A stretch of DNA of 43,771 nucleotides from Reclinomonas americana ATCC 50394 (taxonomy: Eukaryota), in contig PS015148.1 in NCBI GenBank assembly GCA_048213135.1, positions 110,982 through 154,752 on the forward strand. Reading direction: 5' to 3'. The position numbers and the translations under genes were made by a program. Numbering within the stretch: the first letter of the stretch is position 1; every line of letters begins with the position of its first letter. Positions 1-37,472 of this stretch are shown here, one piece after another. The notes beneath the pieces are model-generated. The model saw only the letters and a program-made list of their open reading frames with translations, was not told where the DNA came from and did not search any database.

Positions 1-3000
1 TCCTCGCGCTCCCCGTCGCCTCGCTCTCGCACACCACCCTCGTACCGACGTCGAGGTCGTGCGTCTCCGTCGCACGAGAGCCATTACCGGCATGATCAGC
101 GCATGGATAGCGCCGTGGTTGCGTCATTTGCAAAAGAGTGCCCTCCCTGTCAACTTCAAATTTCTCACTGCTCTTTTTCTCTGTGCACAGTTGGCCCCAC
201 TCCATTCAGATCCGTCGTCGGCGTTCCGCTTGCACAACTCGCTGCCGGTGTCGCCGCTGTCGTACGACGTGCTGAATGGGACCGACGATGCGCTGGAGGA
301 GTTGCCGCTTGATGGTGGAGCCGAGGAGGATCGGCAGTCGAATGAGTCGGCCTCGCGGCCTTCCATTTCGTCGCACTCGAGTTACCACTCAGCAACTGCG
401 CTCGCCGCTGCAGGTCTCGGCACCGCTCGCGCTGGTGATATGGGTGGTGGTGGCGGGGGTGGTGTCGGCAGCGGAGCTGCAACGGCGGGCGGAGCGCCGT
501 CGCGTAACACACGCGTGCGCACGCCACCACCCGCCGCGGAGCAGGATGGTGAACCACCGCGACGGCGGCGACGACCGAGTCGCGACACGCAGAATCCATC
601 GCCCACACGTGTGCGTTTCCGCGATGAGCACCCGGTGCTCCTCGGGCATGAGGGACGCTCGGAGGATGAGGACGAAGGTGGTGATGCAGGATCGATGCCG
701 GGGTCGGCAGGCGCAAGGTGAAGAGAGAAAGAGGGAGAGAGGGAGGCAGAGAGAGCGAGAGAGAGAGAGAGAGGGAGAGAGCAAGGAAGGGGGTAAAAGT
801 GGGAGAGAGGGAGAGGGAGAGAGAGAGCGAGTGAGATAGAGAGTGGGCTTTGTAATCGTCTGTGGTTTCTCATTTCCTCTCTCTCTGCTAACTCCATGCG
901 CAAGGTGAACAGAGGGGAGAGAGAGCGAGAGGGCGAAGAGAGAGAGAGAGCAAGGAGGGGGGGGGGGAAGTGGGAGAGAGGGAGAGAGACAGAGAGGGGA
1001 AGAGAGGGACACTGAGAGCGAGATGGGAGTGGGCTTTATAATGATTTGTGGTTTCTCTTCTCGTCTCCCTCACTCTCAACTAACTCCCACCCCGCTGTGC
1101 AGTCGCACTGCCGATCTCCTGGACGTGAGTGCCATACCGATGGTTCGCCGCACTGGAAGCGCCGAGTGGGACACGTCGTCAACTGATTTCCCGGAAGAGG
1201 TGTGTCGTGCATCGCTTATCTTCAGCGGTCCTTGTTCCACAATTACCGTCTCTCTCTCTCTCTTTCTNNNNNNNNNNNNNNNNNNNNGTCTGTCTCCCTT
1301 TTTCTTCTTCCAGTTCGCTTCCGCATTCTGTCTCAGTGGTGCTTCGCTCTTTTGTCACATGTTGTCACCTCCAAGTCCTCGCTCTTCTTCTTCTCTCTCT
1401 CCCCTTCCTACCTTCCCCACTTTCATCATTTTCGTCCCTCTTCCCTCCCTTCTTCCTTCTTTCCTCCTAACTCTTCCCTTCCCTCTCCCTCCTCGCTCCT
1501 TCCTCCCTCTCTCCTCTTTCCTCCTCCTTTTTCCCTCCTCCCTCTTCCCTCCTCCCTCCTCCCTCCTCCCTCCTCCCTCTTCCCTCCTCCCTCCTCCCTC
1601 CTCCCCCTCCCTCCACCCTCCCTCTCCCTCCTCGCTCCTTCCTCAACTCCCTCACCGTCTCCTCCCTTTCTTTCTCCCTCATCCCCTCCTACCTTCCCCC
1701 TTGCCGCAGCACATTTCCCGCCAGCGCCGCGCACGCCAACACGTACCCGTGGACGACGACAGCACGGGAAACGACGATTCAAGGGTGCGACTGTCGGTGC
1801 ACGATGTGCAGCCACTGTTGCCCGCCGCCGCCGCCTCCCCACCTCGCCGTCACGCTCCCGCACCGCCATCTCCTCCGCCCCTTGTTTACAGCGGCATTCC
1901 CGATTCGCCGCCTCGGCAACCTTCACTCCCTCCGTCAACATTGATCAGTCCGGCGCCGTCGCCGCCTCCAGCCTCCTCGGCCGCCGCCAGCTCAGCGCCC
2001 ACGGCATTGCCGCCCCCGGCGGTACCCGTGGAATCACTGTCTGCGCTCACCACGCCCACACCTCCGCGCTCTCCTTCCCTTTCTCCACCGCCGGCCCCGC
2101 GAGATGCATCAACGGCTGTAGCGCACGCCGCTCCGCGAGAGGTTTGCTGTTGCGATCTGTCGTGTTTTTTTGCTTTTGATACTGACATAATCGTGTGTGT
2201 GTGTGTGTGTGTGTGCGCGCCAGTCACCACCACCACATCTTCGCCACTCTGTCTCCACTGCTTCGGGTGCTGCTGCGTCAGCTGCTGTTGCTCCCCTGGC
2301 TGGATACGTGTCGCCGTCCCGTCGCTCGCCGTTTGCCGAGTCGCCGCCGCCGGAACTCGATCAGGTGCTCAGTCGGCGGCTGGGCGACATCAAGAGTCGT
2401 GAGGCGAGCCGCGCGGAGCGGGTACCTCTTGGCGAGTCATCCGCCACGCGGAGACCGTCGGTGCGGGAATCCGGTCCAACTTCAGTAGCAGCGGCGACTG
2501 TCAGTCCACCGCGGCGGCTCTCCACCGTGCGCATTCTTGACGCGGAGCCAACGGCGCCATCCAGGCCCGTTGGTCGCGCCGCTGACCCTGTCCCAGCCGC
2601 CGCTCCGACACCACCGACTGCTTCACGAGCACCACCAGCGCCACAAGCCGTCGCACCGACACCGTCAACCACGGCGCCAGTCCCTGCGGCTGCAGCACCG
2701 GCGGTACCCCCACTAACTGCAACGCAGGCGCCCCCAGCCGTTGTACCGGCGGCACCAGCAGCCCCTGCTGCGCGAGCACCACCAGCTGCAACACAGGCGC
2801 CTCCTGCCTCAGCCCCTGCTCCTGCTCCTGCCCCTGCTCCTGCTCCCGCCCCTGCTGCCGCACCGCCAGCACCGCCAGCACCACCGGCTCCACCGGCTCC
2901 TCCGCCACCCATACCTCGTGCTCCGCTGTCGCCGCGATCACCGCCGGTGCCGCCAACATCGTTTTCGACTGGTGCTCTCGGTGTTGATCGCTTCCAGCCT

Positions 3001-4817
3001 CTGCAATCGCTGCCGACTGCGCCTCCTCCCGCCGCTCCCACCGCCACCACCACTGCGGCTCCAATCGCTCCGCCTCCACTTCTCCCGCTGCCGCAGCCGC
3101 CAGGTGCGGCGCCAGCTCGTGCAAAGCTCGTGTTGCCTGCGGCAGCCACCCCCGCAACGGCAGCCGCCACCGCCGCCGCTGCGCCACCTGCGCAACAGCC
3201 GTTTGAGTCGCTGCTCAGCGCGCCAAGCGCCGTGTTGCCAGCCGGCGGTGCCACTGGCACACCGCTTGTACGCATTCCAGAAGCAGCTGCGCCACCGCCG
3301 CTGCTGCCGACGGAACTCACCCGGGATAGGCCACAGCCTGCGGCCTCGGCGACTCCATTGCCTGTGTTGCCGCCACTGCCGGTTGTCGTGCCCAGCTCTC
3401 CGTCGGACTCTGACACCGAGGCACCGGCGGCAGCAGCTGCCGCACGACCGCGTCTCGATCTCGGACCGGTGACCGTCGCCGACGACGACGAACCGCCTCT
3501 GGTCGACCAAGCCGCCGCGGAGAGTCGAGCGAAACGCCTGGCAGGTCTGCGCGAACGCTCTGCGCAGCGGCGAGAGGCCGCACTCCAACAGCTGGCAGCC
3601 TCGGTGAATGCCTCGAATGGCACCTCCGCTGCACCCGCGACCCCTGCGCCGTCGGCTTCGCGGTTGGCGCTCGAGACCATCACCAATCGGCAGCTTGGAT
3701 TGCCTCCTGCAGCGACGGAGAGTTCAACAGCAGCGGCGGCAGACGCAACGCGCGGGCGTGCTCCGTCCAATGCGAGCAACGGATCGCCTCCTTCGGCCGC
3801 ACCGTCGTCGCCGCGAGTCGCCGCCCTCGGTGCATCGACATTCAATATGGACTCGTTTGTCATTGGTGCCGCCTCGCCGCGGCGACGTAGTACGCTGAAG
3901 GCAGGTGGCGCTCCGAGTGCGGCAGTCATTGCAGCGGCTGCTGCTGCTGCTGCACCAACAGCAACGCCAGCACCGGCACCGGCCGTGACGGCCACAGTAC
4001 CCGCACAACAAGCGCAGGCCCCTGCTCCGGCACCAGTTGCTCCTTCTCCAGCCCCAGCTGCTCCTGTTCCCGCTGCAGCTGCGGCTCCTGCTCCGACTCC
4101 TGTTGCTGTGGCGCCAGCTGTGGCCGCCGCTCCTGCACCGTTGGTCGTGGTGGCTGCCGCCGACCCACCTTCACCTTCCACTCCATCGAGTGAAGCACTC
4201 ACACCGTCGTCGCCGGCAAGCAACGCGTCAACACCGCGTCGTGGTTCGACGACCGAGCTGCCTGCTCGCCTCATGTCGACCAACGACATTGTCATTGCCG
4301 CCAGTGCGCGTCGTCGCAGTAAACGCAACAGCCGCACTGGTCTGCCGATGATGGAGGGCGCCGGCGACATGTCGCCGACCTCCAGCGACGTCATTTCTCC
4401 CGGCACGCCGTCGACCCCGGTGCAAGTGAGTTGGTCGTCTCTCTCATCGAAACTCGCAGCGCCTCTCACTGACCTCCTGAACTTGCACGCAGAGCCCGCC
4501 GTCGGCTGTCGCTGCCACAGCGACCACCGCCACCACTGTTACTGCGGCTCCTGCGCCGGCAGCGGCAGCGACACCTGCGCCTGCACCAGCGGCAGCACCT
4601 GCGCCTGCGCCTGCACCACCTGCTGCAGCGCCAAATCCGAAGCTGCGGTGGTTGGCGGCCACTTCTGCCGACGGTGGCACATATTACTACGGTATGGGAT
4701 ATTGTTGGGCGATATCTCTGTCGTGTATAAGTTTCTGAAAACACCCGTGCTGCAGACCCAGCCACACGCGAGACGGTGTGGACCCTGCCACCAGGCGAAG
4801 GTCTCAAACCGAAATGA
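1..4817 (+). CDS. Pro/Ala/Ser-rich low-complexity protein with C-terminal WW domain (5' end outside window; multi-exon)
   Basis: In-frame GT-AG introns 118-190, 718-1102, 1200-1709, 2142-2223 and two short introns near 4430-4490 and 4690-4755. The last two exons join to RWLAATSADGGTYYY|DPATRETVWTLP (WW pattern W..YYY..T.W..P). TGA at 4815-4817. Confidence 0.75.
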
Positions 4818-4867
4818 TGACACGGCAGTGGCCAGATTTCATTGCTTCCGTTTGACAACTGGCGGCT

Positions 4868-7800
4868 CTACATGGCGGCATACTCGCAATGCTCCCCCGA
4901 CCAGCCGTCGGCGCAGAGGCACGTATCGTCGTCGTTGCACGTTCCGTGGCCGTTGCATGAGCCCGCGGGTGTGCAAGCGGCTGTAACACGTCACAAGATA
5001 GAAACATTCACAAGTGCAATGTGAGTGTGTTGTGAAGGCACATAATTAATAATGAATCATAGTATGCAATGGACAGTAGCAGCGTACCGACGATTTCGAT
5101 TGGATGAGAGGTGGCGACGCGGCCTTCGTAGCCAAACTTGATAAAGTCTTTGTAGGCGCGAATCTCCCACTTGGAGCCAGCGACAGCTGTCGCTGGCACC
5201 ACCAGGTCGTTCGTGTTGCCAGAGGCGGTATTGGGAAGCCACAGCCACTACGCACAGCAGACATGAGCGCGAGGAGAAAACAAGCAGAGTCGACGGATGA
5301 GTACCTTGGGTCCGTCGGTGTTGTACGGTGCGGAGACTTGCACCAGGCTGAGGAAAGAATGGGATGAATGTGGGAAACAAAGGCAACAACTCGTCGCGTA
5401 CCTGAGCCAGTTGCGCTCTCCGCTCGGGAAGCCAGTCCATGACACGGGAATAATGTCGTTGGGCTTGGCGCGAGTCTTGCGCACGCTGATGCTGGCGCCT
5501 CGTTCTGTGGTGGTGTGACCTCGGTCAGTATGCGTTCTACAAAATATTCCACGACGCGAGACAACTCACCGTCGCACGACGATCCCTCCCAGCCCATATT
5601 GCACTCGCAGCGACCAGAAATCGGATGGCACGTGCCTATTGCAGAGCAGAGTGAGGAGTGAAGCAGCGACGCAAGACACTGGCCATGTGTACGTCACCGT
5701 TGCCGCCGCACGTGTGATGCGGATGGCATCGGCAATTGGCCTCGGAGCCAACCCAGCCGTCGGTGCACTCGCACGTTCCATCAGCACTGCATGTGCCGTG
5801 ATCTGCCAAACAGAAGACGACAATCAATCAGCTCGCTCATTCACTCCCTTGCGCGAGTGCATCAATAGCATTCTCACCTCCACACTTATCGCACGCAGTC
5901 AGGCAAGCATCGCCGAACCAGCCAGAGAGGCATTGCGCACAGTTCGTCGCGCCATCGTAGTTGGTCATGCACAAGCACTTGCCATTGTCGCACACGCCGT
6001 TGCCGAAACAGTCGTTGGGGCACGAGGAGCTGCCGGGTACGGCGAAGTTGTCGCCCGAGATTACCACCGAGAAATCCTGCGGTCCGCGCGGAAGTGCCGC
6101 AGCTGAAACCACCTACAGAAGACCACGAGCGTCAGGAATGAGGTATGGACAGCGGAAACCACGCGCCATTGTCACACGCAACAATGGTGTAGTCGCCAGC
6201 GGCGAGGTCAGTGAGAACGACGCGCTCCTTGGAATTGCTGCACAGAATAAAACCCTTGAGATGAGGGGTGCGCCTCACAGCTCAGCTGTCAGCATCTACA
6301 CACGCAACAGTCGATCTGGCACTTTGTCGACGTAGAGGAAGTTGCCTTGCCCCTGCGGCAGCACCGAGGCCGTGCTCTTCTTGTGCACCTCGAGGTCGAG
6401 GTCCGACTGCAGGGCCTTGGCGTTGCCGGAGGAGACCAGAGCGGGCGGATAGTCGGTCCAGGCCAGCGTGATCGAGATGCGAGTGGCGACGCCCACAGGC
6501 ACAGAGAAAGTGCGCTCCCACTTGGCCCCAGCTTGTGTCAGCAAACAACTGTCGGCACTCAGCACCACCGTGGTCGGGTACTGTTCGCCAGTCAGCGAGA
6601 ACAGGTTAGAGGCTTGCACGCGACCGAAACCAGTTGTCTGTCCGCGCGCGCCTGGTGTTTTGAGTTTGCTCTCGGTGAGGGTCACCGGCTGCGCCGCGTT
6701 GATGAGAAGTGCGCGCATCAGCGAAGAGGGTGGGTTGCGGATGGGGCGCGGTGGCGACGGCGCAGTGCACTTGGTGGGCGGATTCGGATAGCACTCGGTC
6801 ATCCACTGATACAAGCTCGCTGCGAGAGATGAGTGTCAGTGCGCTCCACAGACATTCTCGCTGCGTAGTCTGCCACTGCCACTCACCCATGACGCCCGCC
6901 GTGTTGGGGGTGGCCATGCTGCGAGAGAATGAGAGATGAGGGGGTTCGTAAAACAGAGCGACGACGGAGAAGACGTTGACACACCTGGTGCCGGAGAAAC
7001 GAGCCAGATGGAAATCCACAGCATGCTCGTCCACTATATTTATCGCCAATAAGATGATAATGCACACCAGCACAGGTCGTGTTTTAGAACGCAACAATTC
7101 TCACGTGTTCCAGCACCGCACTTGTTCACACTGCTTGCGGCCGCGGAGCCGGCCGAGAAGATCGGATTGCCACTGTGACGCGTGGGGATTCAGCAAGAGT
7201 CAAGTCCACGGTGTATGAGTGAGCAAGCAGGAGGAATGCGCAACGCCATGACAACACTGCAAGAGCGTGTGAGTTCAATTCTGTGACAGAATGATCATGA
7301 AGACAAAGGCACGCAACTCAATGCCCATGCGGCCATCCGTCAACGGACCTACGTTGGATGAGCACACCGTCGCGCAATCAAAACATCAACTGCAAGAGTA
7401 ACACAAACCGCGAGAAGAAAACGGCGCAATCTCGTCGCCAGCCTTGACGCGACCCGTGTCGGTGGCTCCCACCACCAGTGCATTCTTCACGTGACCTTCC
7501 CCGTCAACCTGCTCAGAGCGCCACCCAAATGAGGACCACGAAAGCGGGGAAAGGAGGGGTGTGGCGAACCGTTTTTGCACGCGGCCCTTCGTTGCCGGCG
7601 GCAAAGAGCACGGAGAAATCCTACACGCACCACATCCCTCTTCAGCTTGTGGTGTGCAGGGCGTGGAGGGCACAACAGTGTGGCATTCACCTTGTGCTTC
7701 CACAGATACCGATCGACGCTCAGCGAGTACGAGTCGTAGCTGCGACCGCCACCCCACGAATGACTCGAAATACGAGCTGCACGCCCAGAATCGATGAGTG

Positions 7801-10162
7801 CCATGTGCCTTGCTGCAAATGGTGATTCCACACTGTGACGCACCTCCATTTCGATACATGATGCCGAAGAAGGATTCGCCCAGCTCATACGGTGGATACA
7901 CGCCACCGTCGTTTGCCTTGCAGAATTGGTCGCAACCGCACGGAATGTCAGGAGGGCACGAGCAGCCGGATGAGTCGTACCCCTCGGTGTTGCATGACAG
8001 GTCGTACATGATGAGACGTGCGTCCTGGGGTGCAGTCACGGTTATCAGAGTGGAGCCCGAACCAAATTGTTGACAGGAGGAACAAGCGTACCTTGGCCAT
8101 GCCGTTGTACTGTCGACACAATGCAGTCTTAGTTGTGGCATATGAGAAAGAAATGATGAGGCATGCGTACCTTGGCAAGTGCCGGGGACCAGGGCGATGC
8201 GTTGCCAGCCACTGTGCCACTCACATGGGTGCCTGTGAAGCACGAGCAGCAGTGAGATGTCGATGCGGATGTCAGTGTTATGCATGGCATTTTCTCCCCA
8301 ACCATGATCTGCATGCAACACGGGGTTGGTCAGCGAAACGCGAAAGCAGGAAACGATCAATGCCACGAACCTGAGAGGCCATCGCTGCCGTGGTCCATCA
8401 GATTAAAGTAGCCTGCAATCAAAGATCTTGCGGGTGAGGTTGATGATTAGGATGGAGGCAGCGTGACGACCAGACGCACCTGCAATCTTGCGATGCTTGG
8501 AGGTGAACTTGTGGTACTGGTCGCGTGAGTACTCAACCGGCTCTGTGATCACACGAAAATTGTGAGCCAACTGCAGAACTGCGCTCAACCCTCATCACGC
8601 ACCGTTCTTGTCGTAAAAGAAGCACGAGTTGGTGTCGAGACCCGTGTCGGACACGGCGACGGTGACACCGCGGCCCGACAGAATCTCACTCAGAGGCTCG
8701 TCGAACGCCACACCATTCTGCCAGTGCCAGCGTGCACGCGAGTTGTGTGCAAAGCGCTTGTGCACAATCTCCACCCACAGCACACGCGGTTCGCGCGCCA
8801 CCGCCTGCGACACCTGGTGCACCTGCTCGAGTGAACGCAACCGCACGGCCACCATGTCGCCATGCTCACCGTGCGCCACCTCGGCCGACTCGACATCGAA
8901 ACCGCCGCTCACCAGTCGCTGTCGCAGCTCGTCGGCGAACTGGCCGGTCGAGCCCTGTTCTGGTGGCGTGAGCACACAAACTCCTCTGATCAGCACTTCG
9001 GTATAGGCACACAGACCTCGAGCGGATGCGAGGCCACTTGCACATGCAACAGCGGCAGCACATCGTCGGCCTTTGCCTGCACCTCATCGCTGCGCATCTG
9101 CACCAAGCGTGCGCTCTCCTTGAACCGACGCTCGTACCAGAACACGCCAAACACCTGCTGCTCGTGTCGCTCGCCCAACTCGCGCTCCACCGCCTCAGCC
9201 GCACGCGCCGAGGCGTAAAAGACGTAGGCACGATCAGGCACGAACTGCACATAAATCGAGCTCTTTGACTGCTGTTGCTGCTTGTTGGTGTCGCTATCGT
9301 TGTTTTCCGTCACATCCACGCGGTGGATAATGTCGCGAATGAGGTTCTCCATCGCCGGTGATGGGGTGGAGGTGGCGCGCAACGTGACCAGATAGGTGGA
9401 TCGCGACTCCACCTCGGGAGTGGACGAGGGCGACGTGGACAGTGGACTATCAGGATGAGAGGGAGAGGGAGAGGGAGGAAGGGGAAGGAGGGAGAGAGAG
9501 GCGAGAATATGAGCAGCTGCTTTGCTTTTTGTCTCTCACGATCTCTCTCGGCGCCTTCTTACGCTCTCTTGTTGTTACCAGTCTGCCCTCTTCTTCTTCG
9601 TCTTCTTCTTCTTCTTCTCTCTGTCTCTCCCTCACTCTCACGCTCTCTCTCTCTTTCTCTCTCTCTGTTTCTCATGATCTCTCTCGGCACCTTCTAACTC
9701 TCTCTTGTTGTCACCAGTCTGCCCTCTCCTTCACTCCCCTCGCCTCTCTCTCTCTCTCNNNNNNNNNNNNNNNNNNNNNNNNNNNNNNNNNNNNNNNNNN
9801 NNNNNNNNNNNNNNNNNNNNNNNNNNNNNNNNNNNNNNNNNNNNNNNNNNNNNNNNNNNNNNNNNNNNNNNNNNNNNNNTTCACTCTTTCTCTCTCTCTT
9901 CTCTTCTGTCATGACGCAACGCAATCGCCTCTGTCTGGGAGTGCACATGCCGTGGCACGAGCGAGGACGGGTGCAGTGAGAAGCCATTCAGGTGCACCTG
10001 TGAGTGTGCGTGTGTGACCAACAAGATCGTTAGATCACAAGTGTGTGAGATCGAGCGCGCGTTTCTTCTCACTTCTTCAGAGACAGCTGCCGCACGAGGC
10101 AACGAGCATGCCGCGAGGATCAGCACACACAGCAGTGACACGACCACTGTCGTCAGCCGCAT
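4868..10162 (-). CDS. Secreted subtilisin-like serine protease (S8, KP-43/Dictyostelium Tag-like) with C-terminal beta-sandwich, EGF-like repeats and a possible Ig-like module; 27 exons
   Basis: Signal peptide MRLTTVVVSLLCVLILAACSLPRAAA. Spliced motifs VAVSDTGLD (Asp), DHGTHVSGTVAG (His), ISSHSWG, VLFAAGNEG, FSSRGPLTDGR, SGTSMATP (Ser), PSSLMRALLINAA, GFGRV, ITLAWTD. EGF units CPNDCFGNGVCDNGKCLC etc. 26 GT-AG introns keep frame; TAG at 4868-4870. Confidence 0.92.
8303..8308 (-). other. 6-nt micro-exon (ATCATG) encoding the catalytic His of the S8 protease
   Basis: Sense strand gcag|ATCATG|gttggg. It joins G|AT CAT G|GC ACC CAT to give D-H-G-T-H; without it the HGT motif lacks its His. Confidence 0.85.
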
Positions 10163-10286
10163 GTCTTTTCTCGCACTTTCAAAGAAAAACGGATTTTCCC
10201 GCCAACACTGCTCAGTTCGGTTTTTGATGCCAGCCTTCTTTGCAAAACACCGTTCTTTTTTCTTCATTCGCAACCAGCACACAGTA

Positions 10287-13200
10287 TTACTTTCTTCGGT
10301 GCCCAAAGCGCTTTGATCTTGATGTGACCACGCGCTCCGACTGCTCGCGCACCACTCGCTCCAGCGTCGGTGCTTGCAGCGTGAGATCGTCGCGAGAGAT
10401 CTCGCACGGTTCCAGGCGATCCCAGATGCACTGCAATATCATGTACGCTCGGTAAGTTACGATGAAAAACGCACGCATTTGCTGCTGCTGTGCAAAAAAA
10501 ACGCAACATTCTTCGGGGCCATTAGTGTATCGCGAGCGGCCTGCTCCACGCTGGCCATGGCCATGTCGGTGAGCACCGTGCTGTTCAGCAGCTCCTCGAG
10601 CATCACGTGCTCAGCGTTGCTCTGGCGGCGCAGCTCCGTGTCTTCGGGCGACGACGGAGCCGAGGTCGACATGCGCGACGGATGCGGATACGGGGAGCGG
10701 ATGGGCAGGTCGCTCAGATCGTCGACTGCACGCTTGAAGCGATGCGCCCCGCGGACGGCCGGGAAGAGACCTGTTGGCGAGCCAAGTGAGAAACAAAGAA
10801 CACACAGGAACATGCCATACTCGCTCTCTGTCGTACCTCCCGACGTATGCTGCGCCAAGTCCGCAAACGACGTTGTCGACTTGTGCGGTGGAGCACGTTC
10901 CTTTCTGGGCGACCGCGGCTTGGGCGGCGGCGACACGGACTGGTTGTGAGCGGCGCGGAACGGCGACATGGACGGCACTGCACCGAGTGCAATGGNNNNN
11001 NNNNNNNNNNNNNNNCAGTGGCGTCAATCACCGAGCCACGATGTGCGTGGAAACGGTTGCCAGCCGGCATCAGTGAGCCACCCGACGGCAGTGCAATGGA
11101 GCCGCGGTGGACCATGGAGGGCCGATGTCCGGCAGCCATGTGCGCCGCGACGACGGAGCCGCGCGGGGCCAGCACTGTGCCCGCCGGGTACGCCACCGAG
11201 GCGCGCGGTGGAGTGCCCAGTGCACCGGCGCCGGCACCGCCGCTTGAGTGGAGTGGCCGCATCTTTAGCGGCGACTGCGATCGTGCGCGCCGAGAGTCGG
11301 GCTGACCCATTGGTGACGGTGTGCGAGTGCGTCCTGCCGCGCCTGGCGTCTCCAGCACATTCGGTGACGGCGATCGCAAGATCGTCGGTGGCGGTGGCGA
11401 GCCGCCGCGAATGGTCTCTGCCTCCGGCAGCGGCGACGAGGGCGAATCGGTGGGTGAGCCGCCACCAGAGACGCCACTGCCCGGTGAGCGGACGCCTGCA
11501 GGCGATCGCAGTGACGATGGCGAGGCGCCAGATGGAGACTTGGGGGAGCCTTTCAGTGACCGCCCACTTGGTGACCGGCCGGTGGGCGACCGACCACCCG
11601 TAGGTGACATGCCTTCTCCTCCTCCTCCTCCGCCGCCTCCTCCTTCCTCGCCCTCGTAGTCGCCCTCCATGCCCAACGCCGACACCGTGGCTGGNNNNNN
11701 NNNNNNNNNNNNNNAATGGAACTGCGTCGTTCCAGCACAGTCAACTGCTCCTCGGCCCGACTGCGCAGGAATTGGACCATGCGCTGTCGGTTCTCCGACT
11801 CCTGCTCCTGTTGAATCTCGGGGACACGCAGTTTGCGGAATGTCTTGCGGTCGTTGATTCGCCACTTGTCGGCGCCGAGCAGACCGGCGCTCATGCCATT
11901 GTCGAGGAAGATGCGCGCCGTGCAGTCAGAGCTACCCGTGGCGATAATGTGCGTGGACGGCTCATACGCGCAGCTGGGAGTGGAGTGAGTGCGAGGGAGG
12001 TGTGAAACAAGACGTTCTTTCCCCCATACCTGGTGATGATCGACTCGTGAGCACGGAACGACAAGGTGCACACGACCATGTCCTCGGTGACCAGACCGGC
12101 ACCCGGCGGCACGCCCGTAATGTTCCACAGACGAATGTAGCCGAGAGCGTCGCCAGTGACCAGCACATCGTTATCGGCCGTCACAAACAGCGCAGTGATC
12201 GGGTTGTTCAGGCGGTACGAGGCCTGGATTACGCCCACCTGGCGCGTCTCGCGGAGGAGGAAGAAACGGAGTGTGCCGTCACCGCAGCCGCAGGCCACAA
12301 GGCCGTCTTTCTTGGGAAGGGAGACGATCTGCACGAGAGGGGTGAGTATTTCTTCAAAAGGAAAAAAAGGCCAGATGCGTGCCGGCTCACCTTCTCAATG
12401 TAGCTGGCCGCGCCCGCAGCTTCTCCGCTGTCGGAGCCACTCTCGAGCACCTGGATCTCGCCGACGCGTGTCGACGAGTTGAAGTTGAACAGAACCAGTG
12501 CACCCGTGTCTGTGCCGCCGACAATCAAGTACGGCGGACAGAAGGCCAGTGACAGGAGATCTTGCTGCGATCTGCGTGGGAGAGGAAGGGAGGGCGGAAG
12601 GGGAGGGACGGGGGAGGGAGGGAGGGAGGGAGTGGGTCAGCAAGGTTAAGAGATGTCACATGCAAGTGGAATAACGACGCACTGTGGGGACACGGAAAAG
12701 TGCTTCTCGATTTCGGCTTCCGAGTCGTCGCTCCACGAAATCACACGACGGTTCCAGCCGCCAGCCAGCAGGAATCTACAGCATTGGTGAGATTTGTGCC
12801 TTGCATGCAAGGACTTCACGAAAAAACAAACCTCATTCCGTGCGTTTTCTGCTCAATGTACGCGAGTCCAGTCACCTCGCGATTGTCGGGCGAGATGCAC
12901 TCCTTCAAAATCTGTCCACTGATGTAGTTCCACACCAAGACGCGCCCGTCGACGCATCCGCAAATGAGGCGCCGTTCGCCTCCGTCAAAAATGGCCGATG
13001 TCACTTTTCGTGGCTGCGTCAAACGAGTGAGATCACAGAATCGAGGGGAAAAGAAAGGAAGAGAGACAAAACGACAAACCATGGTGAACTTGAAAGTCAT
13101 GTTGCCTGTGTCGGGCTCCCACACGCACACCTTGCGCGGATCCACTGTCACCAATTGATTGAAGCGGCTATTGTACAGCACGGCAATCAGTGGCTCCTGG

Positions 13201-25121: not shown

Positions 25122-25592
25122 TCTTGTCCTTCGTGCACTCACTGTGCGATCAAGACAACGCGGACTCTTCCTGTCCCTTCTCCTCCTCCACCACCCTCCT
25201 CCTCTCTTCTCAAGTGTGTGTGTTCTCATTCTCTCTCTTTCTCTCACTCTCTTCCTTTTCGCCTCTCTCCCTCCCTCTCCCTCCCTCCCTCCCTCTCTCC
25301 CTTCTCTCCCCCTCACTCACCGCGTCAGCGCACCACACCCACACGGATTGAGATGATTCGCCAACACCGTCTCCACACACAATCGACACAACACATGCGT
25401 CAGGGTCTCACACAGTGCCGGTTCATCGCAGGGCACTCCAGTGCAAATCACACAGCGGAGGCGGTCGACGCGCTCCAACAAGGCCGCGTTCTTTGCAGAG
25501 GAAGAGGAGGCAGAGGAGGAGCTGTCCGCGGCATCCTCTGCGGCGGGGTTGTCCTCCAGGGCCAGCCAGAGGTATTCCTCATCAAAGCACAT
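21097..25592 (-). CDS. RING + TRAF-type zinc fingers + coiled coil + Btk-like zinc motif + acidic repeat tail (putative E3 ligase); about 14 exons, start codon uncertain
   Basis: RING CVIC..C..H..C..C..CGC. TRAF-type fingers CRHMGCPWRG..LHSHRRQC, CPYGSSGC..HMNEC, HQRIECPNTLVPC, CPMSIYGC..HVASEC. Coiled coil VVQRLDRLEKTV. CLRC..CRFHSGDFVMGHWTCC..GC..H after micro-exon splicing. No MATH domain seen. Confidence 0.8.
21172..21387 (-). repeat. Coding 24-nt tandem repeat (about 9 copies) encoding V(V/I/G)AAVE(Q/H)E
   Basis: + strand units like cacttcttgctccacagcagcgac; translation ...EHEVVAAAEQEVVAAVEQEVVPAVVQEVVAAVEHE... Confidence 0.9.
22653..23035 (-). other. Chain of four micro-exons: GAT 22972-22974, TTTGTAATG 22883-22891, GGG 22815-22817, CAC 22717-22719
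   Basis: Each is flanked by yAG and GT (gcgcag|GAT|gtacgt; aactag|TTTGTAATG|gtttgt; tcgcag|GGG|gtgagt; ctgcag|CAC|gtgcgt). Introns are 61, 80, 65, 95 and 64 nt with CTGAC/CTAAT/CTAAC/CTCAC branch-like motifs. Confidence 0.75.
25057..25159. repeat. Perfect 35-bp inverted repeat (25057-25091 / 25125-25159, 33-nt loop) inside intron 24771-25320; third 31-bp copy at 24926-24956
   Basis: gttgtcttgatcgcacagtgagtgcacgaaggaca and its exact reverse complement tgtccttcgtgcactcactgtgcgatcaagacaac. Confidence 0.95.
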
Positions 25593-26045: not shown

Positions 26046-26480
26046 GTGGCGACGGGTCATCTAAAAGTGAAAACCGATTGGCGATGCGGCACAGGAACCG
26101 GTTGTTGCCAATTGCNNNNNNNNNNNNNNNNNNNNNNNNNNNNNNNNNNNNNNNNNNNNNNNNNNNNNNNNNNNNNNNNNNNNNNNNNNNNNNNNNNNNN
26201 NNNNNNNNNNNNNNNNNNNNNNNNNNNNNNNNNNNNNNNNNCACAGGCAGCCTGTGGCGACGCGGCACTGGGAGAATGCATCGGTGACGCGGCGCTGGTG
26301 ACTGCCAAAGGCAACGAAGGCAGTCTGTGGCGACGCGGCACTGGGAATTGCGCGGCGCTGGTGACTGCCAAATGGCGACGCGGCATCCGTGGCAGGTCAC
26401 GGCAATGTCGCATCGCTGAACGTGATCGGCAATGCGGAGCCAGTGACTGCCAAACGCAACGCGGCACTTGGGAATGTGCT
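26046..26480. repeat. Degenerate GC-rich intergenic minisatellite interrupted by an N gap
   Basis: Recurrent units gtggcgacgcggcactggga and cgcggcgctggtgactgccaaa. Confidence 0.7.
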
Positions 26481-26513
26481 TTGCAATACGGTAATAGACA
26501 CGGGCACCGATGA

Positions 26514-27599: not shown

Positions 27600-27913
27600 G
27601 TTATGTGTGTGCGCGCGAGAGTGGACGAAGGGGTTTGCATCATTTCCCGCTTTTTTCATTTACAGTACAGTATATAACCAGCACGGGGTTTGTATCGAAG
27701 AATTTGTGGCGGCACAGTGTCCTTGAGCAGACCACCCTGCACCTCCATTCCAACTTCGCTGACATCGCACACGCCTGAATTTCCGAACACAGCAAGTGTC
27801 GCTGTGGCAGATCGTTGCCGCAAGTATTTCTCCTGTCAGAAATCCGTTGTTCTCCTCCTCACACAGAGCGGACCTTACCCTCCTACCACCACGTCATCTC
27901 CTCCGCCCCCGCG

Positions 27914-29025: not shown

Positions 29026-29202
29026 GAAGAAAAAAGAACTGAACCGTAAACAGAGCAAGCACATGTCGACGCCGGTGGTACATAAAATGGCACAAGAGGA
29101 GGGCAGCATACAGAGACAGCGCGTCATAAAGGGAGGGGGGAGATTTTGAGAGGAAAATACACAAAATGATGCAGGGGGAGGCGGAGATTGCCAGAGTCTG
29201 TC

Positions 29203-32200
29203 TCACATCAGTGAGCAGCAACCCTTCTTGGCCGGCTGCTGCGCCTGCGCATNNNNNNNNNNNNNNNNNNNNACAAAAGCAGCGTGAGAACACAAAAAAA
29301 CCCACTTGTACACATCGACCAACAAAACTCACCGGCAGTGGGAGAGTGTTGGCGGTGGCCGCAGCAGAGCCGTTCGTGGCGGCCGCCGCAGCGGTGGGCG
29401 ACGATGAAGCCGAGCGAGTGGCGGAAGCGGCAGGTGAGGAGGCGCGTCCTGCCTGCTCGCGCAGTTCGGTGTTCTCTCGCACCAACTTGAGCTTCTCCGT
29501 CTCCAACTTGGCCTTTTGCTCGCGCACGGTCGACAGCTGTGCACGCAGTGCGTTGGTGGACTCCTCCTTCTCGGCCAGAGCCTTGGTGAGCGCCTCACGA
29601 GCGGCCATCAACTCGTTGTGCAAGTCGATGCGCTCCTCGGCGCCCTGCATGAGCAGCACGTTGCGACCGGAGGCGCCTGCGTAGTTGCGAGTGGATTTCA
29701 GTCACGCGCCACAGGGTGAAACGCAACAAAATGAATGTACCTTTTTGCAGCGCATCCTTGACGCGACGCAGTTCATCACGCAGACGATCACGCTCATCGC
29801 GCAACCGATCGCGCTCCTCCACGACCGAGTCAGCTGCACGAGCATCGAGGAGTCAGTGGACAGCTGCCGTCAGGAAGGAGTTGCAGGACACGAAACTAGC
29901 GGAGCGTGAAGCAGACGCCGAGCTGGCGACCGGCTCAAAGAGGTTGGCGGATGAGAGCGCATGAATCGGAGTCTCGATCGAGAAGCGGAATGCTGCACAT
30001 GCAGTGAGGACGACACGCCAATTTCATCGATGCAGTCATGCCACGCAACATTGCCGAATGGAGGCCAAATCAGTGTTGACGGAAACCGGTGGCGGCAACA
30101 CAGAGTGATCGAGGGTCTCGCCCTCGCCCCACAGCTCAACAGCCAGCGGCTCCTGCTCCAAATACTGCTGCAGATCGGGCGTCATCGTCAACTTGAAGTT
30201 CTCCGTGTGATCAAAAACGGGCCGCACGCTGAAGCCGGGGAACACCTGTCGAAGCAGCAAGAGGGTGAGAATTACGGGAGACAATAGAGAGAGAGAGGAG
30301 GGAGGGAGAGACGAAGGGGGAGAGACACAGAAGAAAGGAAGGAGAGAAAGGAAGAGAGAGAAAGGAGAGAGAAGAAGAGAGACAAGAGAAAGGAGAGAGA
30401 AGAAAGAGAAAAGAAGAGAGAGACACAGAGAAAAAGGAAGGAGAGAAAGAAGAGAGAGAAGAGAGAGAGCGAAAAGAGACAAGAGAGAGAGAGAGAGAGA
30501 CTGAGAAAAGAAGAGAGAGAGACAGAGAAAAGGGGAGAGAGACACAGAAAAGAAAGGGGGAAAGGAAGGAGAGAAAAGAAGAGAGAGAAATGGAGAGAGA
30601 GAGAGAAGTAAAAGAGACAATGGAGAGAGAGAAGATTGGATGAGTGAGTGACTGACTGGGCGAATGAGTGTGCGTATTAGAGAGAGAGAGAGGAGGGAGA
30701 GAGAAGAGCATACGTCTCAGCCCGCTTGCTTATTTTTTGTGTCTGCATGATTGTGCGTGCGCGTGTGCACCAAGCACTCACCGGCGTCTGGCGCTCATTG
30801 GCCTCGTTGAAGAACTTGAACTTCATAAACACATTGTTGGCAAACTCCCTCTTGGTCAGTTGCGCATCCATCAGTGTGAGCGAGAACTTCATCGGAGCGC
30901 CCATCGGCACCGGTTCGCCCTGCTCGTAGCTGTCGTCCATGACCTCCACGTCCCTACACCGGCACTTGTGTTCAGCGTTTCTCGCAGTGGGCGCAGAGAG
31001 TGGACAGCATGACAACGCAACATGGTGTAGCGCACAGAGCCAAGGTCGCCCTTGACTGCCGGGTCGCTCGGCAAAATGCTCACCACCGCATCCTCGTCTT
31101 CCAAGTCGACTCCAATGCCCATGGTCACGCCCAGCAAGAAGATCGGCGCGTAGCCGATGGCAATGCGCTCCGTCAGGTCGATGAACGGGTCATCCTCCAG
31201 CGGCAGTTCATACGGCTAAACACACACAAACAATCAGAGAACAACGTCAATACATCCTCTCTCACACAAAGCAAACACTCACCGTCTTGTTGCGGTGCGC
31301 ACGGCGCACGTCCTTGTACACGGCCTCCATGGTGGCGTAGCGATTGCAAAAGTCCTCGTACGTCCAGTAGGCCGGCGCGTCGGTCCACTTGCGCTGCACC
31401 TCCACCATGGCTTGCGCGCCGTTCACGTCGCCGAACTTGGACTTGATCTTGCCCACAAAGGTGACTGGACGGCGGAGGTCTTGTGCCAGCAGGTTGGCTT
31501 GGCGGGTGAGAGGGACGAGCTGGGCAGACGGAAAGGGTGAGAGGAGAAGGGAAAGGAGAGGGAAAGAGAGAGGGAAAGGCGGGCAAAGGGAGCGGGAGAG
31601 GGATAGACGGGCAAAGGAGCGGGACAGTGAGAAGCGCACATTGATACACACGAATGATTCTTACAAACACATACGCACGCACGCTTACACAAATGCACGC
31701 TCGCATCCTTACAAACACGAATGAACAGTCGCATTCTTGCACACACATTACGAGCAGGAATGCACGCTCACATACTTACAACCACGAGCACAAGAACTCA
31801 CAATTACACGCACTCACATGCACACGGTTATACACACATACACATTCACTCGCTCACTCACTTACGAACGAATGCCCCTCACGTTCTTTCAAAGACAAGC
31901 ACACACTCACTCACTCACACTAACGCATACGCACACACACACATATGCACAGTCACAAAGTCGCACGCACACACTCAGTCACACCTGCTCACGCACGCAC
32001 GCACACACACACACACTCTCTCCACTCACACAAAACACACACACACAACACACCTTGGTCAGCTGATTCTCGATACGAATCTGCGCGACACGCTCCTGTG
32101 CCTTCTTCTCCTCCTGGCGAATGCTGCGCTCGAGCGCTCGCGACAAATGAGCTTGCAGTTCGGCAGCCTGGCGTTGCATGTCCTCCACCTGCTGCTTGTG

Positions 32201-32502
32201 CTGCGCCTCGGCTTCTTTCTGTGGTGTGTAAAGGAGCCAGGATTGAGGACTGCGCCCAAGGCAACGGGCGCACACTACTCTCACTCACACGCTCATACAC
32301 ATCTCTCTCTCTCTCTTTCTCGTTCTTTCTCTCGCCCACAGTCTTCCAATGGATATACACAAAGCTCTCTCTCTCTCCCTGTCCCCTTCCCTCTCTCACT
32401 CTCTTTCCCTTTCTCTCACTTTCTTTCCACTTCTCAATCTCTTTCCACTTCTCTCACTCTCTCTTCCCCTTTCTCTCACTCTCTTTCTCTCTCTCTCTTC
32501 CT

Positions 32503-32555
<53 letters not shown>

Positions 32556-35500
32556 TTTCTCTCACTCTCTATTTCTCCTTTTCTCTCTTCCCCCTTCTCA
32601 CCCCCTGTCCCTTCATCTCTCTCTCTCTCTCCCCTGCTCTCCATCACACTCACCAGCGCCTGACCGCCGCGCACACGGGCAATCTTCTCCGTAAACTCCC
32701 TCTCTAGCCGCTCCTGGTCGGCACGCAGCTCGGCCTCCTTCTTCCTGCGATCGGCGTCAAAGGCGCGCGCCAGCTCGGCCTTGGTGCGCTCCACCTCCTG
32801 GCGCACTTCCTCGGGGTCCTTGTAGCCCTGGGACTTGAGCAGCTCCTGATAATGGCGGTTCGCGAGTAAGTACAGGAGCAGCAGGAGCGAGAAAGCGAGG
32901 GCAGCATCGCAGACGCACCGTGTACGCAAACTGGAAGGTGACATTTGCATCGGGCGGGCCAGCACGCGGATCAATAAAGTGATAACAGAAGCTTGAACCG
33001 ATCCAGATGCGAGATCCCTGCGAGACAAACAAGTGAGCACAGGTGCCGAATCTGCAAACAAAAACACAAAAACCACTCACATGGCGCAGTACAGTCGGCT
33101 CGGTGATTTCCTTGCCGTTCACGTGCGTCTTGTAACGCTCGCGATCCGAGGCCAGCGGTGTGAGCGTGACACGGCCGTTCACATTCTCGAAGCGGCAGTG
33201 GATCGGCGCAACCTCTTGTCCGTCAAACACCACGTCGGCGTGCGATTGCTGAATCGCGAAACAAAGAAAAAAATGAGAAAATGGAGCGAGGCGGGGAGTG
33301 GAATCAAGGTGCAAGGACGTTACCCCTTCAGTGGCGGGATCCATGGAGCCAATGGTGAACGACCTGCCAATGGGAATACCGTGCACCAGACGACCGGCCA
33401 TGAATGGGTCCTCCGACAAATTCGAGATGCGCGGCGTGTCGTCGGCAATGTCCTCGGCGGCGATACCCAGCTCCTGCGGTGACATGGAGAGTGAGACACG
33501 GCGGTGAAGACGGTGAGAGGTACAAATGTTGCGCAACTCTCATGTAGCGGTGGCGGGCATCGCGCATCACATGTGCGTCGTTGACACGCTCCTCGTACGA
33601 CTTTTGCATCTCTTCAATGACCTTCAGCTTCTCCTCGAGCTCATTCTGCAGCTCGTCGATGCGAGCCTGCGTCAGAGCCTCGCGTTGCTCTGTGCACAAG
33701 CGGTGGTGAGTGCATGTGGAAGGGGAGAAGAGTCGTGTTGGCGGAAACGCAACGGAGCTCTGCCTGCAGCGCCATGACACGGTTGCGGGACTCTGCGAGG
33801 GTGGACGGAAAGTGAGAGAGATGAACATCACACACGATGATTACTGTTACAGACAGACCCTCCTCCAGTCGGCCGCGATCAGCGGACGTGTGCACAGCCT
33901 TTTGCGCATTGACCTTGACGCGAGACACACTCTTGGCGAACCTGCGCGCGCACACAAAGGCATCAGCAATGGAGCGCAAGAGCAGTGAATGTGAAAGACG
34001 GAAACGCAACTCCAATGTCGACACGGATTCCTCGTAGTTGAGCGCCGACGGAGAAATGGCGGCAATCATGACGGTCTTGCTGTTGAGGCCGAGCGACTCT
34101 TGCAAGACCCTGCATGCGGAATCAGCAACGAAATGATGAAGCAAATGCCTAGGTCAAAAACAAACGCAACTCAGTGAGGCGCGAGTCACGGTAGGCCGGC
34201 TTCTGACCATCGGCCAAGGCACGAATGACACGACCGAGTGTCAGCAGCGACAGGTTGATCTTGGCACCTTGCTGTGCAGTGGGGAGAGGAGAGAGTGGTG
34301 AGAAACAAGGAGAGGAATGTGGTTTGGCCGAGATGATCACGAAACGGCGCGAGTGACTCCCTCGGTTTCGGCCTTGCTGATGCGCTCCGAGCCGGCCAAG
34401 TCGACCAGGTTGATTTTCGGGGCCAGGGTTTGGCTCGTCCGCAGGTCGGTCTGCCAGAGGGCAAAGGGGGTGAGCATGGAAAGGGGGAGGGTGAAGGGAA
34501 GGGAAAGGTGAAGGGGGAAGAGAAGGGGAAAGGGACGGGGGGAGGTGAAGGGGAAAGTGAAGAGGGCGAAAGGGTAAAGGGGAAAGGTGAAGGGAAATGT
34601 AAAAGGGAAAGCGAAGAGGGCGAAAGGGTGAAGGGGAAGAGAAGGGGGAAGGGGAAGAGAAGGGGGAAGGGAAGGGAATGGTGAAGGGGGAAGCGAAGAG
34701 GGCGAAAGGGAAGGGGGAAAGGTGAAGGGGGAAAGGTGAAAAAAGATGTAAAAGGGAAAGCGAAGAGGGCGAAAGGGTGAAGGGGGAAGAGAAGGGGGAA
34801 GGGAAGGGAATGGTGAAGGGGGAAGAGAAGGGGAAAGCGAAGAGGGCGAAAGGGAAGGGGAAAGGTGAAGGGGAAAAGGTGAAGGGAGATGTAAAAGGGA
34901 AAGCGATGAGGGCGAAAAGGTGAAGGGGGAAGAGAAGGGGAAGGTAAAGGGAATGAGCGACGGGGAAGCGACGAGGACGAAAGGGTGAAGGGGGGAGAAG
35001 CGGCAAGGCAAACGGGAAGGAAGCGTAGAAAAGGAAAAGGTGAAGGGGTAAGTGCAGGGGAAGAGTGAAGGATAAAGTGACGAAAACATGTTGCGGCAAG
35101 ACGGTGAGAGAGAAGAGGAAAGGAAAGCAGGTAGCCGGCCTATTATCCCAATCAACAGCCACCGTGACGAAGCAGGAGATAAGGAAGAGTCAGAAGGGTA
35201 AAGGAATAGCTGGGCGGAGAGATGAATGAAGCAGATCACCTGCCACAACCAACGCAATAAAAGAGCAAGGGGGATCAACTCTACTCACATGGCGAAGAAT
35301 AGAACATCAACATATTCAAAGGAGAGACGAGGAAAGAAAGAAATGTAGATGGAGGAAGATTGCGTGGAGCAACCACAGCAGCGACAGGGAGGTAACAGAA
35401 AAACGAATCACGAGATCACACGCCCTCTCCCCCTTCTCCCCACAACAGACCTTTCGGAAGTGCACAGTCATAACAGTGTGCGCGCGACTGGATTGGTCAT

Positions 35501-37392
35501 TGAGCGCCGTCTTCTCAATGATGCGCATGCGGAGGGCGGCCTCCAGATTCTCCATGATCTCGTCGAATGACTTGACGAGAACGCTGTCAAGGCATGAGGC
35601 ACGATGAGCACGAGAAGGAGACAATAACACGACGAATGCCCACGCAACTGATTGGCACCGTGAATGTAGACGCCCTTGAGGCGGTCCTTGACCACGCGGA
35701 GCTTCTTGGAGTCGCGCTCCGCCTCGCTGGTCACCAAAAGATCGTTGATCTGCTCCATATAAATCTGTACAATTGTAATTTCTACTTCGGTGCGGATGTT
35801 GCGATTGGTGGCCATCTCCGCCTCGCAGCGCTCAAAGAGCTCTTGGCACACCTGCGCACAAGGAGAAGGGAGGTTAACGGGGAGAGAGGACAAGGGGGGA
35901 GATGACGGAGAGGGGAGAGAGTGCCGAACTGCAGTGTTGCTGATGCAGGTGTGAACGTGTTCGAGGCTCATTAATCCGCTCTCTTTCTCTTTCTGCGTGA
36001 GTGTCTTCTCTGACAGAGCGTCGTGCTGGTGTGGCACGCACTGGAGACAGAAGTACCCCGCGAATGGTGCACAGTTCTCTTCGTCGCGAACTCGGACAGT
36101 TGCTCTCAGTGCCTCTTGCCACTGTCACGCAGGGCGATCGCTTCTCCCCTTCTAGCAGCGCTACAGCGTGGGAGTGAAAGCTCCTCCACATGTGCCAGTT
36201 CTCTTCAAGGGAGTTCTCAAATCAGTGACCACTTTTCCAACTCATTCTTCAGACGATGCGGTCGCTTCCAGCGAGCGAAAGCATATCTTCCCCAAAGCTC
36301 CTGTTGCTCATTACTCATCTCTATTTCACACACTCTTGCTCTCCAATATAACTGAAGAGTGCTTGGAGAGTGAACCTGCATCGCGTGTTGCCGGTTGTCT
36401 ATTCTCCTCTCCATCTCACGTCTCTTCCACATAACTAAAGTGTATTTGGAGAGTGAACCTACATCGTGTGCTGCCTGTAGCCTATTCTACTCTCCATCTC
36501 ACGTACTAACGCAGACGTTGCCACACACTCTCCTATGAAACTGAAGAGTGTTTTGAGAGTGAACCTGCTTCTTGTGCTGCCTGTTGCCATTTCTACTCTC
36601 CATCTCACGTACTAACGCAGACGTTGCCACACACTCTCCTATAAAACTGAAGAGTGTTTTGAGAGTGAACCTACTTCGTGTGCTCTCAACTTCACGCTTC
36701 CTCGCACAGTGCCGACAACCCTCTCCCTCTCAGCTAGCGCAAGTAGTTTAGTGTGGTGCGCTTGGCGCACAAGTCTTTCTCTCACATACACACCAACACA
36801 CACACAAACACACGCACACGCACACGCACACTCTCCCTGTCTCTTTTCACGCACACGGTCGCTCGGTGACAGAACCGATTGAGAGTGGATCGTCTCACAC
36901 GTTGCCTCTTCTGCCTCAATCTCTCTTCTGCATGCAAGTGCCTGGAGTGCTCTCTTCACACTCCTTCCCCCCTTCCACCCTCTCTCTCCTTCACGCAACT
37001 CTCGGCATGATACCCTGATCCGCTCCCCGCGGCGCTCCCACCATGGAAAACGACTTGCCCGATCCACTCTGCCCATACGCAAACAGACTGCTATTGTAGC
37101 CCTCCAGCGAGTTCTCCAGCACCGATCGCCCCAGCCGCTCATACACCAGATTCTGATCGGCAAAGTGCGGATCGCGCGGGTCGTGCGACCAAATCGAATA
37201 GTTGAACGCGTACTGTCGCGGCGGCTCATTCGGCTTGTGCGGGTTGTAGATAAACGTGTGCTTGCGTGACTCATCGTCGGCAGGCATGTCCACAATGCAT
37301 CGAATGTTCGGGTCTGCATGTGAGAGAGAGTCAGAGAGAAACTCCGATCTGCAACCGACAATGTAACTCAACACACATACACGCTCTCACTA

Positions 37393-37472
<80 letters not shown>

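Follow-up and report, generated by a model that had tools for sequence, protein, structure and literature searches.

How many kinds of 5′ splice site does the spliceosome of Reclinomonas americana ATCC 50394 read? The question is raised by a window of 43,771 bases (contig PS015148.1, positions 110,982–154,752; all coordinates below are those of the window), which has ~57% G+C and eleven assembly gaps, is dense in introns and carries most of its genes on the minus strand. Intron length has a median of only 66 nt; the sense strand of the introns is rich in C and T, they usually end in CAG, and a CTSAY branch motif lies ~19 nt before the acceptor. The original prediction listed 25 introns whose 5′ splice sites (donors) begin GTTGCG or GTTTCG, and proposed that normal U1 small nuclear RNA (snRNA) may routinely read them in a register shifted by one base (+1), naming bulged recognition or a variant U1 or U6 snRNA as further options. 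Here we describe the evidence that these donors form a second class, and weigh what might read it.

Two classes of 5′ splice site

The motif is present at each of the 25 listed positions, 22 times as GTTGCG and 3 times as GTTTCG, and just two of these positions (118 and 24636) have a G at −1, in agreement with the claim that the exon mostly ends in another base. The 7-mer GTTGCGT occurs 26 times in the window against an expectation of 7.38 (standard deviation 2.43), a count reached by none of 100 dinucleotide-preserving shuffles. The minus strand, which carries most genes, has 23 of the copies and the plus strand 3; between 4868 and 37800, 21 are sense and 2 antisense. Seventeen donors of the curated set described below start with it. 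There are four further sense copies, at 9920, 29727, 8841 and 26460, the last of which lies outside modelled sequence. The copy at 8841 (minus) sits inside an exon of the S8 peptidase gene with a G before it and is apparently unused, as is that at 29727 (minus), 13 nt into an intron (29740–29677) whose modelled donor, GTACAT, is weak.

Genes were parsed with a Viterbi gene finder built on Markov models of codons and introns; it also modelled acceptors and branch sites and was constrained by frame and stops. A donor-blind parse, in which GT was the sole donor requirement, yielded 100 minus-strand introns; the commonest donor hexamer was GTTGCG (15), GTTTCG opened 3, and 18 of the 24 listed minus-strand sites were recovered. 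In a second parse the donor model was limited to intron positions +1 to +8, which left the exon end unbiased. This parse recovered 21 of the 24, missing 9920, 20694 and 36999. Removal of five of its introns and addition of eleven on homology gave a curated set of 82, which includes 23 of the 24 listed minus-strand sites and an extra one at 7095. Kinesin 33018–32180 and the 9.7–11-kb region were left out of the modelling.

We defined class 1 donors by G at +5, class 2 donors by GTT[G/T]CG, and placed the rest in neither class. The 82 curated donors divide into 47 of class 1 (39 after G), 24 of class 2 (1 after G) and 11 of neither (8 after G). G therefore stands at −1 in 1 of 24 class 2 donors versus 47 of 58 others (Fisher, 4e-11), and in the donor-blind parse of 4868–37800 the corresponding counts are 0 of 18 versus 38 of 69 (Fisher, 6.8e-6). 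Conversely, class 2 supplies 23 of the 34 curated donors without G at −1, and 23 of the 26 without G at both −1 and +5. The predicted link between a frequent second donor class and exons not ending in G was thereby borne out. In the S8 gene the predicted trend of ordinary donors following G also held, at 18 of 19 in our model, the earlier count being 19 of 21.

Each of the six identified genes with several introns that were modelled contains class 2: kinesin (10 of 20 modelled introns), S8 (5 of 24), TRAF-type (3 of 11), ALG10 (2 of 8), EF-hand/WD40 (2 of 15) and TMEM14 (1 of 3). Every class 2 intron runs from GT to AG and leaves the frame intact. The class makes up about 21–29% of modelled introns, from 18 of 87 (21%) in the donor-blind parse to 29% in the curated set, a share that is biased because a donor model was used for the intron positions. 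This bias counts against the class, as does the size of the sample, 82 curated introns from a single 44-kb window; so do plausible canonical alternatives at three class 2 sites (20694, 7095 and 10507), those elsewhere being poor.

Could the class be a modelling artefact, with the true junctions at nearby ordinary GTs and GTTGCG just a common word of the sense strand? The junctions are known here from sequence alone, three sites have usable alternatives, and ab initio parses erred elsewhere (35411 was chosen for 35450, S8 8400–7400 was mis-parsed and the kinesin gene was broken). Three observations oppose this explanation. Homology without donor scoring fixes 11 junctions; six class 2 donors (31021, 30049, 29896, 23035, 13532 and 7244) are each the sole in-frame GT in the stretch running from 45 nt upstream to the first stop downstream; and the 7-mer is tenfold enriched, on a single strand, with normal branch and acceptor signals following it at 57–77 nt. 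We judge an artefact very unlikely, and the second donor class very probably real.

Placement of the class 2 junctions

Junctions were examined with a protein-to-genome spliced aligner that we wrote knowing only GT..AG, with no donor scoring. Eleven junctions gained support independent of the donor motif, ten from homologue alignments and the eleventh from a Pfam match. In what follows a slash marks the junction, lower-case letters give the exon end, and introns lie on the minus strand unless stated otherwise.

The kinesin-3/KIF14-like gene (~37760–29000, minus) holds most of this support. Three junctions were found with 3 of 3 references: IMPR/VCQELF at 36999 (35852..36999, aga/GTTGCGTG), whose 1,148-nt intron has a stop codon two codons past the donor; 35648 (35584..35648, tca/GTTGCGTG); and 34345 (34272..34345, gcc/GTTTCGTG), where blastp is also gap-free. 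Two were found with 2 of 3 references, namely LTE/VLQES at 34170 (34110..34170, tga/GTTGCGTT), again gap-free in blastp, and 33537 (33474..33537, aga/GTTGCGCA). At 34010 (33942..34010, gga/GTTGCGTT) the aligner missed the junction and read through the intron because of its linear gap cost; blastp to two references (P0001 and P0002) is gap-free over STLE/FAKS. The earlier placement of the donors in IMPR/V and LTE/VLQES is upheld by these alignments. The intron 33690..33753 in the coiled coil (tcc/GTTGCGTT) comes from the parses and was missed by the homology aligner. In the tail, 29834..29896 (cta/GTTTCGTG), 29993..30049 (aat/GTTGCGTG) and 30954..31021 (cat/GTTGCGTT) were returned by all parses, each with the sole in-frame GT. 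The donor at 33323 (minus; ggg/GTAACGTC) is a lone intermediate, with the class 2-like CGT at +5 to +7, yet G at −1 and AA at +3/+4.

In the gene for an S8 peptidase with EGF-like repeats (9352–4868, minus), spliced alignment found 6113..6182 (att/GTTGCGTG) in 6 of 7 references and 6238..6308 (act/GTTGCGTG) in 5 of 7. Two further introns, 7257..7317 (tga/GTTGCGTG) and 7173..7244 (ggc/GTTGCGCA), flank a 12-nt exon (7256–7245), the retention of which adds 5–9 bits against 7 of 7 references; the first was also returned by two parses. A possible class 2 intron absent from the earlier list, 7034..7095 (att/GTTGCGTT), comes from the parses. Here an in-frame GTGAGA at 7104 (minus), 9 nt upstream, gives an equally good fit (3 versus 4 references), and could be an alternative 5′ splice site. 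The 12-nt micro-exon (7245–7256, minus) apparently encodes DVVM (7 of 7 references). Two other apparent micro-exons occur in this gene, one of 6 nt (8303–8308, minus), which seems to give the DH of the catalytic DHGTHVSG (4 of 7 references), and one of 18 nt (8092–8109, minus).

The eleventh junction is in ALG10 (~21000–18688, minus), where the Pfam DIE2_ALG10 match stops exactly at PGL, the point at which the donor at 20694 (20632..20694, act/GTTGCGGA) splits a residue, in accord with the predicted PGL/Y. The parses favoured GTGAGA at 20673 (minus), in frame and 21 nt downstream, which would leave a 42-nt intron; it could serve as an alternative 5′ splice site. The second ALG10 intron, 19292..19356 (tac/GTTGCGTT), is supported by the parses, and the DIE2_ALG10 match covers its downstream exon; its comparison with the ALG10 motif FT/VVHP is one that we take to hold.

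Most of the remaining junctions rely on the parses. In the gene for a TRAF-type zinc-finger protein (25229–21097, minus) these are 22975..23035 (gga/GTTTCGTT), with the sole in-frame GT, and 23796..23857 (gac/GTTGCGCT). Intron 24570..24636 (tgg/GTTGCGTG), which has G at −1, was returned by the +1 to +8 parse; the Pfam matches are weak zinc-finger ones only, and the intron preserves the spacing of a repeated CE[YF]R.V.C motif in the gene model. The EF-hand/WD40 gene (16540–11016, minus) contains 13236..13305 (gtc/GTTGCGTC), where the donor-blind parse took GTCGTT, 3 nt upstream, and 13459..13532 (agc/GTTGCGTA), found in all parses with the sole in-frame GT. The TMEM14-like gene (18601–17577, minus) contributes 17642..18226 (ctc/GTTGCGTC), whose 585 nt consist of CT-rich repeats and whose junction is not fixed by homology. 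Intron 10431..10507 (aat/GTTGCGTT), in an unidentified gene, is ambiguous, because an in-frame tgc/GTGCGT at 10474 would make a 44-nt intron. At the claimed donor 9920 (9880..9920, tgc/GTTGCGTC) the motif is present and no model could be built, because the intron enters the assembly gap 9759–9879. The single plus-strand case, 118..190 (gtg/GTTGCGTC), is 73 nt long, with CTCAC as its branch site and CACAG as its acceptor; it connects MDSAV in frame 1 with LAPLHSDP in frame 2, and the donor-blind parse did not pick it.

Beyond the donor, class 2 introns resemble the others. The CTSAY motif is found in 20 of 24 class 2 and 40 of 47 class 1 introns, at a median of 19 nt before the acceptor in both, and CAG ends 21 of 24 and 43 of 47, respectively. 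Median length is 66.5 nt versus 66 nt in the others, composition is alike, and the pyrimidine fraction is 0.63 versus 0.67 in ordinary introns. Judged by their ends, frame, branch site and acceptor, class 2 introns are U2-type GT–AG introns. U12-type (minor) introns were considered and ruled out, the class 2 branch motif and its distance, pyrimidine content, acceptor, length and composition being the same as in ordinary introns.

A rigid motif and uniform lengths (57–77 nt in 19 of 20) would also suit introners, with class 2 representing the conserved 5′ end of transposon-derived introns. We hold this to be extremely improbable, since the intron bodies are unlike each other. In blastn, class 2 pairs account for 10 of 75 weak matches, versus 9% expected from the number of pairs, and for none of the 4 at E ≤ 0.01; in 23 of 24 class 2 introns the exon end and the intron end share no direct repeat; and length, composition, branch site and acceptor are those of the remaining introns. 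Within the window an introner origin, which the original prediction had asked to exclude, is thus unsupported by either shared intron bodies or flanking repeats.

Three introns on the minus strand are long amid neighbours of 55–80 nt: 17642–18226 (585 nt), 34451–35450 (1,000 nt) and 35852–36999 (1,148 nt). At least the first two consist largely of C/T-rich simple repeats, and a class 2 donor begins two of the three.

Pairing with U1 and the putative reader

With the class 2 exon end modelled on the base frequencies of class 1, we obtained log-likelihoods of −105.1 for a one-base shift, −132.6 for the class 1 register, in which the extra base is bulged, and −103.7 for coding background. On the exon side the shifted alignment is strongly preferred to the bulge, and the predicted overlay of /GTTGCGT on G/GTGCGT moved by one base is confirmed. 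The shifted register is allowed and fits no better than background; class 2 is without exon-side signal. The bulged register would keep G at −1, an expectation that fails (1 of 24 in class 2 versus 39 of 47 in class 1). The extra base is U only, as seen in the sense/antisense counts of GTTGCGT (21/2), GTAGCGT (1/0), GTCGCGT (4/3) and GTGGCGT (5/5). A generic bulge at +3 was ruled out on this ground, U being the only extra base tolerated. Moving the entire intron by one base was rejected on inspection, since it would put the acceptor CAG in the wrong place.

We then calculated the best-register duplex energy of each donor (−4 to +9) with the canonical 11-nt U1 5′ end given in PMC4856993, a procedure that reproduces four predicted energies of that source (−15.2, −6.5 for the human shifted site, −1.6 and −8.5). 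Canonical U1 pairs with class 1 at a median of −6.7 kcal/mol, 42 of 47 donors lying at or below −4; for class 2 the median is −1.4 kcal/mol, and −4 or lower is reached by 1 of 24. Decoy GT sites (n = 2,104) average −2.6 kcal/mol, and the area under the curve (AUC) against them is 0.89 for class 1 and 0.30–0.31 for class 2. Class 2 donors thus pair worse than decoys, and the proposal that they are routinely read by +1-shifted pairing to normal U1 is not supported in that form.

A weaker version of that proposal is that the canonical U1 small nuclear ribonucleoprotein (snRNP) reads GUUGCGU shifted by +1 or with a bulged U, proteins supporting the weak helix and later steps setting the cleavage. 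Such registers have precedent, human shifted sites of the GUUAAGU type and bulged registers both being established (PMC4856993, as far as its available text goes). The motif overlays G/GUGCGU at an offset of one base, shift beats bulge in the exon-side statistics, and the extra base is only U, as pairing with A7 would need. The energies speak against it, the best-register median of −1.4 kcal/mol being poorer than at decoy GTs, and deletion of the extra U in silico improves the class 2 mean from −1.1 to −2.6. Where pairing with canonical U1 calls for A, C stands in 24 of 25 GTT[GT]NG donors versus 14 of 36 class 1 donors (P = 2.9e-6), and none of GTTGAGT, GTTGTGT and GTTAAGT serves as a donor in the curated set. 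The bulged-U version meets the further difficulty that G at −1 should help and is seen once in 24. On balance we consider reading by canonical U1 unlikely.

What partner would suit class 2 was explored by scanning 256 U1 variants, covering all combinations at positions 4, 5, 6 and 8. Canonical U1 was the top discriminator of the 256 for class 1 (AUC 0.887), which served as an internal control. The best class 2 partner was changed at positions 5 and 8 and reached an AUC of 0.985, and a single 11-mer for both classes achieved at most about 0.82/0.88. Canonical U1 is therefore best for ordinary donors yet unable to pair with class 2, from which we infer a dedicated partner. The variant U1 or U6 snRNA that the original prediction named as another option would fit better than shifted pairing to normal U1.

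These observations lead us to propose that class 2 introns are ordinary U2-type GT–AG introns whose donor signal, GUU(G/U)CGU, is a second and rigid one. The signal would be wholly intronic, with no exon-side preference, and cleavage would take place at the G of GUU. With the two motifs aligned on their shared GCGU block, intron G+1 would fill the slot that exon G−1 occupies in G/GUGCGU donors. The reader would most likely be a short RNA strand complementary to GUUGCGU. This partner would be lineage-specific, most likely a U1 paralogue whose 5′ end is changed at about two places, position 5 (opposite the invariant C) and position 8 (opposite U+2). We tentatively favour this reading, a second donor class whose reader is a complementary RNA, most probably a U1 paralogue changed at its 5′ end, while placing it somewhat short of an even chance. 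Its stricter form seems possible but rather doubtful to us: two parallel donor codes of the major type, G/GURNGU read through canonical U1 and /GUUGCGU through a second U1-like snRNA changed at positions 5 and 8.

Several considerations weigh against the proposed paralogue. The identity of the partner is deduced from cis sequence, and a best complementary 11-mer arises nearly by construction because the motif is rigid. Nearest-neighbour energies omit pseudouridines and the stabilisers of weak helices, U1C, LUC7 and SR proteins. Eukaryotes, to our knowledge, hardly vary in their U1 5′ end, and a variant is for that reason less probable a priori. No snRNA was detected in the window at gathering score, and the nine sub-threshold matches at E ≤ 1 belong only to microRNA (miRNA), cis-regulatory and bacterial small-RNA families.

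The alternative that these donors do not rely on U1 pairing, with a sequence-specific protein or directly engaged U5/U6 tri-snRNP reading GUUGCGU at exons without G, draws on the same misfit with canonical U1, on the absence of exon-side information and on a shift model that does not rise above background. A tri-snRNP reader faces the problem that the usual pairing of the U6 ACAGA box needs a one-base offset too and leaves the invariant C without a partner. A near-invariant 7-nt motif fixed at the cleavage site is more like RNA–RNA pairing, and no candidate protein has been identified. Classes of 5′ splice site that lean on different factors are known (PMC11732430 and PMC11842720, in their available text). 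We regard U1-independent reading as improbable.

The wider window, known systems and significance

Outside the genes discussed above, the window contains a WD40 segment in a single exon (27659–26514, minus). Pfam searches with ten long open reading frames (ORFs) gave WD40 and a weak EF-hand match and nothing else; with ALG10 and S8 ORF pieces they resolved one junction, and with TMEM14 and TRAF exons they weakly confirmed the families and fixed no junction. The region 1900–4990 has 64% G+C and overlapping ORFs on both strands (931 aa plus, 725 aa minus), which abound in Ala, Gly and Thr runs and have no Pfam match. At 25008–25288 an Rfam match to the Hsp83 3′ untranslated region element lies below threshold, scoring 35.9 bits where the gathering score is 90 (E = 7.7e-7), and is overlapped by weak matches to miRNA families; the sequence is probably of low complexity. 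Several of the eleven N gaps are bordered by (TG)n/(CA)n microsatellites, for example at 37420–37490, and the gap 37490–37509 falls within the first kinesin intron.

A protein search with a kinesin exon returned 3 matches, at most 50% identical, that with an ALG10 exon returned none, and that with a WD40 exon returned 878 generic repeat proteins. A metagenome scan with the kinesin exon yielded 39 loci with best segments of 32–91% identity, the matches at 83–91% spanning only ~22–24 residues. GTTGCGT never exceeded 3 copies in any of the 39 loci, and one locus (L019) has donors of another kind. A full-text literature search on the hexamer and splicing showed no donor class among the matches listed, supplementary files lying beyond its coverage; this is weak evidence that the class has not been described previously.

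The nearest known systems are noncanonical U1 registers. Mammalian +1 shifted-register sites (Roca and Krainer 2009, via PMC4856993) are GUUAAGU-like and pair well with shifted canonical U1, the human shifted oligonucleotide at −6.5 kcal/mol, and all validated noncanonical registers together make up about 1.5% of human sites, according to the available portion of PMC4856993. Class 2 donors are like these sites in their GUU start, the displacement of G from +5 to +6, the scarcity of exon-end pairing and cleavage at GU. They differ in motif (GUUGCGU), in pairing energy (median −1.4 versus −6.5) and in frequency (21–29% of modelled donors versus about 1.5%). With the bulged and asymmetric-loop registers treated in the same portion of that source they share an extra nucleotide separating GU from the downstream paired block; unlike in those registers, G at −1, which would be expected to help, occurs in 1 of 24 and the extra base is U only.

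Two main 5′ splice-site classes, with exon-side and intron-side consensus (PMC11732430), and the related LUC7 classes (PMC11842720) offer a second comparison, here too from the available text. As in those classes, one set of donors leans on G at −1 and the other on intron positions. The exon-side and intron-side classes are halves of one consensus in one register, however; class 2 is unlike the intron-side class in being offset by one base, nearly invariant over 7 nt and in having C for the consensus A. Variant U1 snRNAs, paralogues that are expressed and assembled and that in humans are minor and of uncertain role in splicing (PMC3561869 and PMC10870369, in part), could provide a second donor specificity; here one would have to serve a quarter of introns.

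U12-type introns, in turn, have a rigid intronic 5′ motif and no exon-side consensus, and are read by a different snRNA. Class 2 is like them in its rigid intronic motif and in an exon side without consensus, and unlike them in its ordinary branch site, pyrimidines and acceptor and in a motif unrelated to the minor-type donor. The frequency of U12-type introns is given as 0.36% in the available text of PMC4856993. Class 2 departs from these systems in four respects: how frequent it is, a 7-nt motif that is nearly invariant, the offset by one base and the misfit with canonical U1.

Recognition of the donor by the U1 5′ end is among the most conserved RNA–RNA contacts in eukaryotes. If the class is as described, a fifth to a quarter of introns would depend on a rigid donor that cannot pair with canonical U1. 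Gene finders with a single donor model will misplace class 2 junctions, as our own parses did before the class was modelled. Should the two-code reading be true, about a quarter of introns would be released from the constraint on the last exon base. More generally, the major spliceosome of this organism would have either a second snRNA specificity or a choice of splice site that is largely independent of U1.

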